Shown piece after piece: positions 9,507 to 13,168 of a stretch of DNA of 32,514 nucleotides. The notes under the pieces are model-generated. The model was not told the DNA's origin. It was given only the letters and a program-made list of their open reading frames with translations, and ran no database searches. The stretch's first letter is position 1, and every line of letters starts with the position of its first letter. The DNA comes from an uncultured Rickettsiales bacterium (GTDB lineage Bacteria; Pseudomonadota; Alphaproteobacteria; Rickettsiales; SXRF01), in NCBI GenBank assembly GCA_964529155.1, contig CAZGVV010000016.1:1-32514 (forward strand). Direction: 5' to 3'. The position numbers were made by a program, and so were the translations under genes.

Positions 9507-11054
9507 ATGTCCCTTATTAAATCCACTGCCACCATCGGAGTTTACACGCTAATCTCGCGGTTGCTCGGGTTTTTCCGTGACGTAACCATCGCCTCCAGCC
9601 TCGGCGCCAGCTGGCTCTCGGACGCTTTTTTTGTTGCCTTTAAAATTCCCAATTTCATGCGTCGATTGTTTGCTGAAGGCGCCTTCAACTCCGCCTTCGT
9701 GCCACTCTATGCTGGGACGCTTGCTGAAGAAAATGGCCGTGCCAAAGCCGCACTGTTTGCTGATGAAGCCTATTCCTTTCTTCTTGCCGTATTATTGCTA
9801 TTCAGCTCTGTCTTTATTCTAGCTATGCCGTGGCTCATGTGGATTCTGGCTCCCGGTTTCACTGATAACCCGCAAAAATACACGCTCACCGTGTTACTTA
9901 CACGGATCACTATGCCGTATATTATCTTCATCTCCATCGTTTCGCTCCTCGGTGGTATGCTCAATAGCGTAGGCCGTTTCGCCGCTGTCGCCGCCACGCC
10001 TATCATCATGAATATCTGTCTTATCATCATTCCGCCGATGATTAACCGTTTCGTCCCCACCGGCGCGCATGCGTTGGCCATCGCCGTGCTCATTTCCGGT
10101 GTGGCGCAAATGCTATGGCTCATGGTGTGGTGCAAACGCCTAAATATCATGCCTACCTTGCGTCCGCCGCGCCTCACGGCGGAAGTAAAACGCCTATTAA
10201 AACTCATCGCCCCTGCTGCCATGGGCGCAGGCGTTGCCCAGATCAATTTGTTCGTAGACCTCATCATCGCCTCACAAATCAGCAACGGTGTATCGTATCT
10301 TTATTACGCCGACCGTATCAGTGAATTACCGCTTGCCGTCATTGGCATTGCCATTGGCACCGCCTTACTGCCATTACTGTCCCGCCATATCCGTGAAGGC
10401 AAACACGCCAGCGCCCACGCCAGCCAGAATCGCGCCATCGAACTCGCGCTTCTGCTTGCATTGCCCGCCGCCGCGGCCCTCATGACCATTTCTATTCCGG
10501 TTATCCAGGTGTTGTATGAGCGTGGCGCCTTCACTGTTGACGACACCCGCAAAACCGCCTCCGCTTTAATCGCTTTCGCCGCTGGCTTGCCCGCATTTGT
10601 TTTGGTTAAAGTGCTTGGCCCGGCATTTTACGCCAACCGCGATACCAAAACCCCATTTCAAATCGCGCTTATCTGCATCAGCGTAAATTTCCTGCTCAAC
10701 ATCACGCTCATCTATCCTTTTGCCCATGTCGGTATGGCCATTGCCACCGCCATTGCTGCCTGGCTCAACGTCGCCCTCATGATGCGGATACTGCTTAAAC
10801 GCGGTATGTTCGTATGGGATCGGCTATTGCTTGCTCGCCTTCCCCGTATGTTGGTTGCCGCCGGTCTTATGTCGGTTACCCTGTGGTACTTTTCCGCCCC
10901 GCTTGCCCACTGGCTTGTTGGCTCTACTATCGCCCGTTTTGTTGCGCTCAGTATATTGGTGACGATAGGATTAGTCGTATATGGTGCTGCTGCACTTATG
11001 CTCCGGGCAGTTGATGTGCCCCAATTCCGCAGGCTCATGCGAAAAGCTAAATAG
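9507..11054 (+). CDS. murJ: lipid II flippase MurJ (MviN)
   Basis: It is a 515-aa polytopic protein with the N-terminus ...SRLLGFFRD....A..LGAS..SDAFFVAFKIPN, typical of MurJ. Confidence 0.92.
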   Translation: MSLIKSTATIGVYTLISRLLGFFRDVTIASSLGASWLSDAFFVAFKIPNFMRRLFAEGAFNSAFVPLYAGTLAEENGRAKAALFADEAYSFLLAVLLLFSSVFILAMPWLMWILAPGFTDNPQKYTLTVLLTRITMPYIIFISIVSLLGGMLNSVGRFAAVAATPIIMNICLIIIPPMINRFVPTGAHALAIAVLISGVAQMLWLMVWCKRLNIMPTLRPPRLTAEVKRLLKLIAPAAMGAGVAQINLFVDLIIASQISNGVSYLYYADRISELPLAVIGIAIGTALLPLLSRHIREGKHASAHASQNRAIELALLLALPAAAALMTISIPVIQVLYERGAFTVDDTRKTASALIAFAAGLPAFVLVKVLGPAFYANRDTKTPFQIALICISVNFLLNITLIYPFAHVGMAIATAIAAWLNVALMMRILLKRGMFVWDRLLLARLPRMLVAAGLMSVTLWYFSAPLAHWLVGSTIARFVALSILVTIGLVVYGAAALMLRAVDVPQFRRLMRKAK

Positions 11055-11122: not shown

Positions 11123-11515
11123 GTGAGTAATGCGATGACTGTTAAAAGACCTCACCATGCTCCTGATACAATTGTTTTTCACCCCATCATGGATTACAGC
11201 AATCTAAGCTTAGAGCATACCCAACTACCGTATGAGAAAGTTCAAAGACTTTGTTTGCGGATGAAGCATATTTATGAAAAAGCGAAAGAAATTCCTGGTA
11301 TTTGCCAAGAAGGACTTGATCTATATAAAAATATTTTGTTTTGCCTGGAAAATGAAGCAAAGAGGCCGACGTCACTTTCATATAAGAGTTTTATGCAATT
11401 AGCAGATTTGACACTTGCAACCTGCAGTAATCCTGCAGATAAGAAACATTACAAATCGCAGTGGAAAGAAATTTACAGCGATATTTTGACACGAAATATG
11501 TGTCTAGCAATGTGA
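11123..11515 (+). CDS. hypothetical 130-aa protein (AT-rich ORFan ending in CLAM)
   Basis: The ORF is intact, with a GTG at 11123 and an alternative ATG at 11135. It is visibly AT-rich. I recognise no family motif. Confidence 0.45.
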   Translation: MSNAMTVKRPHHAPDTIVFHPIMDYSNLSLEHTQLPYEKVQRLCLRMKHIYEKAKEIPGICQEGLDLYKNILFCLENEAKRPTSLSYKSFMQLADLTLATCSNPADKKHYKSQWKEIYSDILTRNMCLAM

Positions 11516-11540
11516 TAATCCTATCCGCAATGCACTTTTT

Positions 11541-11626
11541 TTCTTCACCCCTTCCTAACACCAACACCCCTTTCTTCTTTAACCTCTACAAGCAAGAGGT
11601 GTGAGTGTTAGAAAGGGGTGGAAGAA
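11541..11626. repeat. long imperfect inverted repeat (pyrimidine-rich arm / purine-rich arm)
   Basis: By hand alignment, arm 11541-11568 pairs with arm 11598-11626 at 25 positions, with 3 mismatches and 1 bulge. An inner stem pairs cctct (11583-11587) with agagg (11595-11599). Confidence 0.65.
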
Positions 11627-11639
11627 ATAAGATTAGGCC

Positions 11640-12019
11640 TTCCGGGGCATTTTTTCTTATGGCAAAGCTGAGAGTGAAGCCGGTAATTCCGGATCCGGCT
11701 GAGTGGCAAGTGAGCTCATGGGCTCGCGGCGGGTATCCAGCCTGCGCCGCGATGACCCTGTGTGGGTGAGAGAGGGGTAACTCTGTTTCATACCATACAT
11801 GCATAACATGGCGTGGCGGATGGTGTGGCGTGTCAATGCAAACAACAGTTGGTGGTTCTCCCATCCGCTGGCGTACGCAAATCACTCACACCGCCGGAAG
11901 AAGGTCTCGTGTGGTTGCAACCACCGCCCTCTACACGTGAGGGCGAACACTAACGACTATCAACGAAGGACTAATTACTATGCTTACAACAAACTAACTA
12001 AGTCCAGGCAAGCAAAGCA
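11640..12019. ncRNA. candidate structured RNA, class and strand unassigned
   Basis: There is no credible ORF, and the composition is not AT-rich. Several GC-rich stems are present: 11678-11683/11695-11700, 11724-11731/11745-11752, 11816-11823/11861-11868, 11911-11915/11920-11924 and 11925-11931/11939-11945. Confidence 0.3.

Positions 12020-13168
<1,149 letters not shown>

Follow-up and report, generated by a model that had tools for sequence, protein, structure and literature searches.

We analyzed a stretch of 32,514 nt from an uncultured Rickettsiales bacterium (positions 1 to 32,514 of contig CAZGVV010000016.1, assembly GCA_964529155.1), which is called the window below. The tract at 11541-12019 lies between an AT-rich ORFan and the 3' end of mreB, and it had been described in a first-pass annotation as one candidate large structured RNA of about 480 nt, specific to the 3' region of mreB. 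We found that the tract consists of two separable dispersed repeats. Our favored reading, which we hold with somewhat better than even confidence, is that the tract is the insertion of a composite repeat with a non-autonomous core, that the folded + strand of the core is conserved, and that the folded molecule is RNA. One part of the composite would be a REP/REPIN-like hairpin module of mirror-image 19-nt arrays. The other part would be a non-coding, lineage-restricted and non-autonomous core of about 340 nt, which would have dispersed to seven or more intergenic sites here and, in each of two other genera, to at least two. The two parts are located as follows.

11535-11631, no strand assigned: hairpin module, an imperfect palindrome with arms at 11535-11576 and 11590-11631
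11638-11975 (right end approximate), + folding strand: core element of about 340 nt, based on own-genome BLAST, nhmmer, alignments and covariance model (CM) matches of 203 bits

Repeat copies in the genome

The genome searched (G000) is a metagenome-assembled genome (MAG) of 1.93 Mb in 110 contigs with a completeness of 94.8%. Its contigs are denoted by C and a number, and C16 is the copy of the window. Three full copies of the core were found, namely C16, C30:5891-6229 and C34:14014-13683. The copies on C16 and C30 are identical over 11638-11928 (291 nt), and the sole difference between C34 and C16 over the same segment is a 3-nt block at 11665-11667. The last ~45 nt of the core exist in two variants among the copies, and the terminal hairpin is kept in both. 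Another copy (C48:15490-15329) is 80% identical and internally shortened. It has the same orientation as the 5S rRNA, which ends about 130 nt before it, and a strong intrinsic terminator comes after it; from this arrangement, it probably belongs to the transcript of the rRNA operon or follows directly upon it. In addition, contigs C32, C88 and C55 each begin with a right-end fragment of the core, and C6 begins with a left-end one. No additional diverged copies were detected when each lineage of the core was searched with nhmmer against the same genome.

The neighbors differ at each copy, and the orientation relative to genes is unsystematic. Several different settings occur: convergent gaps between genes, positions upstream of a gene read in the same direction, and, for one copy, a divergent promoter region. 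The core is thus small and non-coding, with several near-identical copies at unrelated intergenic sites, which is the generic description of a MITE (a miniature transposable element with inverted repeats) or another interspersed repeat. The near-identity of copies in unrelated sites, the patchy presence both among genera and inside one genus and the decayed or mosaic relatives argue together for a non-autonomous interspersed element.

The long imperfect hairpin that the first-pass annotation had placed at the left end of its RNA corresponds to the hairpin module, with arms of 42 nt that are 79% complementary. Each arm is composed of about 1.7 copies of a unit of about 19 nt (CACCYCTTCCTARCACCAG and its complement), arranged as mirror-image arrays, and the minimum-free-energy hairpin of the module is seen on both strands. 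With nhmmer, the module was found at about 15 or more loci of the genome, in both orientations and several times at contig ends. With Tandem Repeats Finder, mirror-image arrays of tandem 19-nt units were seen at C10, C34, C47 and C49, and the number of units is variable. Arrays without cargo were delimited at 11535-11631 of the window, C10:35768-35925, C49:8600-8725 and C47:4250-4350. At C30 and C48 the core has no hairpin beside it, and many loci have the hairpin but no core. As an extragenic palindromic doublet that is dispersed in both orientations, the module agrees with the definition of REP/REPIN sequences, and on these sequence features we regard it as a separate REP/REPIN-like repeat family. 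No match to the cognate RAYT (Y1 transposase, PF01797) was found in the 94.8%-complete assembly, and absence from an incomplete MAG is no proof of absence.

It had also been noted that 11598-11607 is complementary to 11883-11892, and that the resulting helix might compete with the long hairpin in a switch-like manner. The 10-nt complement does exist in the window. The arm variant found here is GGTGTGAGTG, GGTGTTGGTG or GGTGCTGGTG is found in other hairpin copies, and the hairpin at C34 is without the 10-mer. Because the 10-mer GGTGTGAGTG varies or is absent in other copies and the hairpin itself is dispensable, the 10-bp pairing is not conserved and the switch role is not supported.

Other repeats were observed during these searches. 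An ORF-less tract of about 265 nt at C10:35925-36190 begins with the same hairpin module and continues with TTTTCCCCCTTCCGG (ORF, open reading frame). It contains the 13-mer GAGTGGCAAGTGA and the 9-mer GGTTCTCCC of the element in changed order, and nhmmer detected no further copy; the tract is probably a mosaic or decayed relative of the element, as judged from these shared words. A separate dispersed repeat family of about 155 nt, with copies 90-96% identical, is present on at least nine contigs (C3:11096-11256, C26:19611-19769, C13:8421-8583, C20:14390-14545 and C1:12439-12602, and also on C40, C23, C22 and C10). The number of intragenomic megablast high-scoring segment pairs was 1,463.

Relatives and fold of the core

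We searched the core against 40 related genomes, plasmids and phages and found no BLAST match, and exact 25-28-mers of the core had no match in GTDB genomes or JGI metagenomes. A covariance model of the 5' half gave weak matches in two further genera of this family (genomes G002 and G044). The motif GAAGCCG-loop-CGGCTG-N9-10-GAGCTC was present in 3 of 44 family genomes, and a reversed-pattern control was present in none. Shared by both G002 and G044 are the 5' block (T-rich/CCCCTTCC), with its fixed spacing, and the GC-rich helix P2 (helices are defined below), and G002 also keeps the arrangement of P4, P5 and P6 over about 320 nt. Two copies of the core were found in each of these genomes; the second copy is 83% identical in G044 and 96% identical in G002, where a contig end truncates it. 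One congener of G044 lacks the element, and its ubiH-rpmF spacer, the orthologous site, is shorter by about 390 nt.

The core is therefore known from 3 of 44 genomes and 3 of 19 genera of this uncultured alphaproteobacterial family, and it was found in none of about 143 genomes sampled from other families of the order. A scan for the gapped motif in one genome per species (185,579 species) gave 35 loci, among which only the same two MAGs (JAFATP010000056.1 and JABDCD010000002.1) were confirmed by the CM. The gapped motif was also found at 54 loci in metagenome contigs and at 29 in viral contigs. From metagenomes, the scan contributed no more than one MAG's source contig and a contig (L137) that is a near-identical, G002-like variant, and nothing real matching the core was found in viral contigs, phage records or plasmids. 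The remaining loci, which were not confirmed by the CM, were regarded as chance matches in GC-rich DNA. The R2 model, a 5'-domain model of all five lineages, gave five weak matches in other genera. They were rejected because all of them are inside long ORFs, which we take from their translations to be trmB-, ppk-, response-regulator-, mur- and alaS-like. The R2 model yielded no further true members among the 44 family genomes or in the order sample of ~150 genomes.

We also observed that the hairpin CCTCCCCCGTTCGGGGGGAGG after the G044a copy (G044, L016 1400-1450) is itself a short dispersed repeat, which is common to several genomes of the same genus (G046, G045 and G018 are listed) and to G002.

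Five lineages (the main copy, C48, G002a, G044a and G044b) were aligned over the 5' domain with unguided MAFFT, and the alignment was folded with RNAalifold, which predicts P1, P1a enclosing P1b, and P2 (19 pairs). The proportion of paired cells was 96.8%, compared with 83.5% in column shuffles, and none of 500 shuffles was as high. Changes on both sides were found at 7 of the 19 pairs when 3.3 were expected (0 of 500 shuffles), and sliding the partners reduced the pairing to 24-44%. For P1a and P1b (helices 2 and 3), both-sided changes were present in 5 of 7 pairs. Outside the 5' domain, 3 of the 5 pairs of P5 are compensatory, with 100% of cells paired in eight sequences. These alignments indicate that the helices of the core are maintained by compensatory substitutions in five lineages from three genera.

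G-U pairs account for 13 of 95 paired cells (14%). The opposite strand would pair 83%, which is no better than the shuffles, and the folding energy of 11660-11830 is −67.7 kcal/mol on the + strand vs −45.4 kcal/mol on the − strand, that is, better by about 20 on the + strand. The G-U pairs and the stronger fold thus identify the + strand of the window as the folding strand. Because the helices are numerous, the unpaired blocks are invariant and G-U pairs are frequent, we consider it clearly more probable that the folded molecule is RNA than that it is single-stranded DNA (ssDNA). The blocks of the core, from 5' to 3', are as follows.

11638-11677, +: 5' block, CCTTCCGGGGC; the family motif is T-rich plus CCCCCTTCC
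11678-11700, +: P1, AGCCGG (11678-11683) with CCGGCT (11695-11700) and an 11-nt loop; stem sequence invariant in all lineages
11701-11704 (GAGT) with 11722-11725 (GCTC), +: P1a, enclosing P1b, from RNAalifold on the MAFFT alignment
11710-11712 (GTG), loop AGCT, 11717-11719 (CAT), +: P1b, a near-perfect 10-nt palindrome whose sequence varies by lineage
11726-11750, +: P2, GCGGCG with CGCCGC, GC-rich
11760-11798, +: P3, a long variable hairpin, from single-sequence folds
11799-11815, +: conserved block, predicted to be unpaired, ATGCATAACATGGCGTG; near-identical in C48
11816-11868, +: P4, GCGGATGG (11816-11823) with CCATCCGC (11861-11868), closing a variable insert of 37 nt
11911-11924, +: P5, GTGGT (11911-11915), TGCA, ACCAC (11920-11924), a perfect 14-nt palindrome
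11925-11945, +: P6, the terminal GC-rich hairpin, here variant A, CGCCCTC (11925-11931) with GAGGGCG (11939-11945)
11946-11975, +: A/C-rich tail ending in AACGAAGGACTAA; its right boundary is common to C30, C32, C88 and C55

All stems listed in the first-pass annotation were read from the sequence at their positions, including those of P1, P4, P5 and P6. The 8-bp stem TCGCGGCG (11724-11731) with CGCCGCGA (11745-11752) is present as well, and it represents an alternative register of P2. In C48, P2 contains compensatory changes from C-G to U-A and from G-C to G-U. P3 is replaced in sequence in C48, reduced to a 4-bp hairpin in G044 and enlarged in G002. P4 has a counterpart at the matching position in G002 (GGATTGT with ACAATCC, compared by eye). 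Judged by eye, neither P3 nor P4 is constant in length or sequence, and hairpins are retained at equivalent positions. P5 is GCGAC-TGCA-GTCGC, GCGGT-GATC-ACCGC or CGTGGT-CATG-ACYRCG elsewhere. The right-end alignment of six copies showed variant B of P6 in other copies (GCCCTTA with TAGGGGC), and the stem is preserved. A closing helix between the 5' and 3' regions (CCUUC with GAAGG) is present in some lineages only and is not claimed.

According to the lineage alignment, the motif of the 5' block is followed by 13 nt and YYATG, and then by 11-12 nt and GAAGCC. An A/T-rich −10-like hexamer (TAAGAT, 11627-11632) is directly upstream of the 5' block, and such a hexamer precedes CCCCCTTCC in most copies. 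The 5' block may be a promoter and start region, or a weak terminator hairpin with a U-run. Its motif was also found at other loci, one of them immediately behind the −10 of a tRNA-Gly promoter. In that case, the last ~120 nt of C50 contain the tRNA-Gly(GCC) promoter TTGCAA-N17-TATATT, followed immediately by CCCCTTCCCG, the C/T-rich block with which the repeat element also begins. A sigma-32-like reading of CCCTTCC-N-CCATGT was rejected; against the sigma-32 consensus, its spacer, of about 10 nt, is too short.

We suggest that the conserved fold would consist of P1, P1a/P1b, P2, the variable P3 and P4, P5 and the terminal P6, together with a small number of single-stranded blocks that are invariant. 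The RNA would be about 300-340 nt long, transcribed from the element itself or through read-through. Transcription might start at the −10-like hexamer before CCCCCTTCC; read-through is equally possible, because no −35 is conserved and no promoter was called. The fold would be needed for persistence or for spread through a trans-acting partner.

Coding potential, possible mobilizers and alternative explanations

The first-pass annotation had found no credible ORF in the tract, and no ORF or peptide is shared between the lineages either. In one frame, the first 12 codons are identical between the main copy and C48 at all three codon positions, which indicates a constraint at the nucleotide level and not at the protein level. 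A reading as a small ORF or type I toxin was rejected, since the short ORFs differ entirely between lineages and none is hydrophobic or transmembrane-like. The hallmarks of known RNAs had likewise been reported as missing, and this agrees with our searches. In Rfam 15, no family (RNase P, tmRNA, SRP, 6S, riboswitches, group I/II introns, HEARO, GOLLD, ROOL, OLE and others) reached its gathering threshold anywhere in the window, and the element was likewise unmatched in its other copies and homologues. At E ≤ 10, the top-ranked matches were generic miRNA-precursor models on the long palindrome on both strands, and all matches, including a few weak non-miRNA ones, were far below the gathering scores. 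ARAGORN found no tRNA or tmRNA in the window, Rfam gave no alpha_tmRNA match, and the element is also multi-copy. The signature of RNase P RNA was found elsewhere, at C40:14092; the element is therefore not a housekeeping RNA in disguise. As a side result, a tmRNA gene was not detected by ARAGORN anywhere in the 110-contig assembly, and the ssrA of this genome may be unassembled or too divergent. The proposal of a large structured element outside the known classes is supported for the core, which has many helices, compensatory changes and no Rfam match, and it fails for a single unit of about 480 nt.

We looked for proteins that could mobilize the core. No protein gene adjoins any copy, and no adjacent or matching transposase was found. 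The only TnpB-domain match (20.7 bits) is below the family cut-off and belongs to an unrelated frame of 167 aa. There is no Rfam match to group II introns or retrons and no reverse transcriptase (RT) gene. The features of IS200/IS605-derived palindrome-associated transposable elements (PATEs) and omega RNAs are lacking, with no Y1 gene in the assembly and a left end of the core that is not defined by a hairpin. Six tyrosine-recombinase matches were found in the genome. In G002, an IS1595-type insertion sequence (IS) ends a few bases before the element; the same IS end is repeated alone at many contig ends, so we regard it as an independent neighbor. An intact, single-copy gene of an IS1595-family transposase (289 aa) was observed at C27:17739-18608 (L021 1135-2004), about 1 kb upstream of a pccB-like gene and with no clear terminal inverted repeats. 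IS1595 was rejected as the parent, as the copy in this genome has unrelated flanks and shares no inverted repeats with the core.

Several points weigh against our favored reading. The lineages are only five and related, and the shuffle test therefore overstates the significance. Every covarying helix is a local hairpin. Moreover, P1b with its loop and P5 with its loop form palindromes of ~10 nt and 14-16 nt, respectively, in each lineage, with the loops AGCU, UGCA, GAUC and CAUG. A constraint on RNA stems only would not keep the loops self-complementary, and the palindromes point to duplex dimerization, dyad-symmetric DNA sites or template-switch correction of quasi-palindromes. Since the helices are local and the palindromes of P1b and P5 extend across their loops, template-switch correction or sites for dimeric proteins could mimic RNA covariation at the DNA level. 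The assembly is a MAG of 110 contigs with none below ~2 kb. It may lack a partner gene or extended forms of the element, and the identity between copies could have been inflated by the assembler. No mobilizing enzyme was found in the assembly, in which Y1/RAYT is absent and the IS110 transposase (PF01548) and reverse transcriptase (PF00078) gave no matches. There is no target-site duplication, and the junctions at C16, C30 and C34 share no direct repeat. The only terminal inverted match is weak (9 of 10, TTAGGCCTTC at 11633-11642 with GAAGGACTAA at 11965-11974), and it is absent from the left end of C30, the right end of C34, C48, G002 and G044. Finally, no sigma-70 consensus promoter was called for the element, no −35 is conserved, and no U-tract follows P6.

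One alternative, which we consider unlikely but by no means negligible, is that the copies are paralogous genes of a cellular small RNA, that is, a host regulator of about 300 nt or a component of a ribonucleoprotein. Such genes would each have a promoter (the A/T-rich −10 plus CCCCCTTCC) and be protected by a hairpin at the 3' end; the ancestral copy would be that of the rRNA trailer, and gene conversion would keep the copies nearly identical. The multi-helix architecture, the invariant unpaired blocks, the strand-specific G-U pairs and the covariation would all be expected in this case, and so would the 5' block at fixed spacing, with CCCCTTCC also after the −10 of the tRNA-Gly promoter, and the position of the C48 copy between 5S rRNA and a strong terminator. 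However, the distribution is patchy (3 of 19 family genera) and the congeners of G044 lack the element, the copies are randomly oriented to their neighbors with several in convergent gaps, and the identity of C16 and C30 over 291 nt at unrelated sites looks like recent spread; the lack of a −35 element and of a U-tract terminator also speaks against such genes. It is rather unlikely, in our judgment, that the element acts at the DNA level, with hairpins in ssDNA or cruciforms, or with dyad protein sites, for a recombinase or an HUH/Y1 enzyme, as in REP/REPIN, IS200/IS605-derived PATEs or integron attC, so that any RNA would be incidental. This explanation would account for P1b and P5 being palindromic through the loop in each lineage (AGCT, TGCA, GATC and CATG) and for the frequent adjacency of core and REPIN-like module. 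A bias to one strand is also typical of top-strand-specific ssDNA transposition, and the genome has the tyrosine-recombinase matches. Yet a Y1/RAYT gene was not found and the sole TnpB-domain match is under its cut-off, G-U pairs are weak in DNA and make up 14% of the paired cells, seven helices with unpaired blocks over 300 nt far exceed the known needs of transposon ends, and no hairpin defines the left end.

The tract could also be functionless, decaying repeat DNA whose GC-rich palindromes are of mutational origin and whose fold is unselected. This is consistent with the lack of an identified partner, promoter or terminator, with the local nature of the helices and with the richness of the genome in other short repeats, but we regard it as very unlikely, because helix order, loops and unpaired blocks are kept across three genera between which BLAST fails, and because of the 96.8% of paired cells and the 7 double-sided changes. 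A single mreB-downstream RNA gene of ~480 nt, switching between the 5' hairpin and the 10-bp helix that closes a 290-nt domain, appears extremely unlikely. Its stems and the 10-nt complement do exist here, and the tract folds better than shuffles, but hairpin and core are separable (C30 and C48 are without the hairpin, and the C34 hairpin is without the 10-mer), and the homologues are in unrelated contexts, none beside mreB. It is quite doubtful that the core represents a new class of mobile structured RNA of about 300 nt, spreading without a known transposase family. In that event, the RNA would guide or catalyze its own spread or serve a trans-encoded enzyme, and the palindromic hairpins of 10 nt and 14 nt would be sites of RNA-RNA dimerization or recognition. 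The reading that we continue to favor is the composite repeat with a conserved, folded and probably transcribed core.

Genomic setting and comparison with known systems

The gene order around the tract is murJ at 9507-11054 (+), the ORFan at 11123-11515 (+), the ORF-less gap, mreB (−) and leuA. The flanking features are as follows.

11123-11515, +: AT-rich ORFan, with its stop codon 20 nt upstream of the hairpin module; outside the repeat
12020-13132 as listed, −: mreB, convergent with the ORFan across the gap
12017-12040, −: terminator-like hairpin of mreB, overlapping its stop codon; outside the repeat

The ORFan was excluded from the repeat by the own-genome search, in which the similarity with other copies begins at ~11538. 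The gap of 504 nt contains only ORFs that are short or of non-protein-like composition, and compared with dinucleotide shuffles its folding z-scores are −5.0 on the + strand and −4.5 on the − strand. That the tract is not the leader of a neighboring gene, as had been stated from the convergent genes, stands. The element here would fill the convergent gap between the ORFan and mreB without a specific relation to mreB, and no specific effect on mreB is expected, because its own terminator-like hairpin is outside the repeat. The expectation that relatives would conserve the tract downstream of mreB was not borne out. Covariation was indeed found, and the copies that supply it in the relatives are outside the mreB context.

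The longest frame of mreB opens at TTG 13132 and the conserved N-terminus of MreB begins at ATG 13066, which is, from this comparison, more likely to be the start. On C50 of the same genome (12686-14740), mreC, mreD and mrdA are grouped directly behind infC, and mreB is apart from the remaining elongasome genes. A repeat-mediated break of mreBCD was considered and rejected, with no copy of the element near mreCD-mrdA on C50.

If the fold is RNA, the core would be a family of large structured non-coding RNAs with about seven helices backed by covariation, which is absent from Rfam. Its association would be with an interspersed repeat, and its hosts are from an uncultured alphaproteobacterial family that has hardly been studied. 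Similar elements have yielded RNA-guided mobile systems (omega RNAs and bridge RNAs), and an element without a recognizable protein partner may point to an unrecognized route of mobilization. The element also accounts for several contig breaks in the MAG, and the gap behind mreB is to be viewed as an insertion site and not as a regulatory region of cell-shape genes.

We compared the element with known systems. The type I toxin-antitoxin repeats of E. coli (LDR ldr/rdl, QUAD ibs/sib and hok/sok) are also repeated, structured intergenic units of 150-550 nt, and their loci encode structured RNAs with long-range alternative pairings. Unlike them, the core lacks a conserved hydrophobic small ORF, whichever strand or lineage is considered. 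The core is similar to MITEs in being small, non-coding, intergenic, multi-copy and near-identical, whereas it has no convincing terminal inverted repeats, target-site duplication or parent IS sharing its ends.

The RNAs of mobile elements, such as HEARO/IscB and TnpB omega RNAs, the IS110 bridge RNA and ORF-less group II introns, are multi-copy and patchy, as the core is. They are about 150-600 nt long, travel with their element and have many copies without the protein gene, and the core is comparable. In contrast to them, the core matches neither HEARO nor group II introns in Rfam, the genome yielded no gene for IS110 or RT, and its one TnpB-domain match is below threshold. TnpB, IS110 and RT were the partners looked for in the genome, and IscB was not searched for separately.

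The hairpin module resembles REPINs. Like REP/REPIN sequences, it is an extragenic imperfect palindrome of ~85-160 nt, with two inverted units, often just after gene ends. It differs from RAYT-mobilized REPINs in that its arms are tandem 19-nt arrays with a variable number of units, and in that PF01797 was not found in the 94.8%-complete assembly.

The element as a whole resembles in kind the mosaic interspersed repeats BOX, RIME and ERIC. RIME, the Rhizobium-specific intergenic mosaic elements, were reportedly described by Osteras et al. (1995, as listed among the references of PMC2873474). Croucher et al. (2011, PMC3049150) have described the BOX elements of Streptococcus pneumoniae as modular, ORF-less intergenic repeats with extensive predicted structure, which are expressed when they are co-transcribed. 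BOX-type repeats of ~100-400 nt have many copies in one species and few or none in its relatives, and no transposase is assigned to them (PMC3049150). Like BOX, ERIC and RIME, the element is modular, ORF-less, intergenic, structured and without a transposase. There is no sequence relation to these repeats, and the copy number of the core is about 7 compared with more than 100 for BOX-type repeats. The core is also longer and forms a single unit instead of boxA/B/C modules, and, unlike in these repeats, its helices are compensated between genera and its unpaired blocks are invariant.

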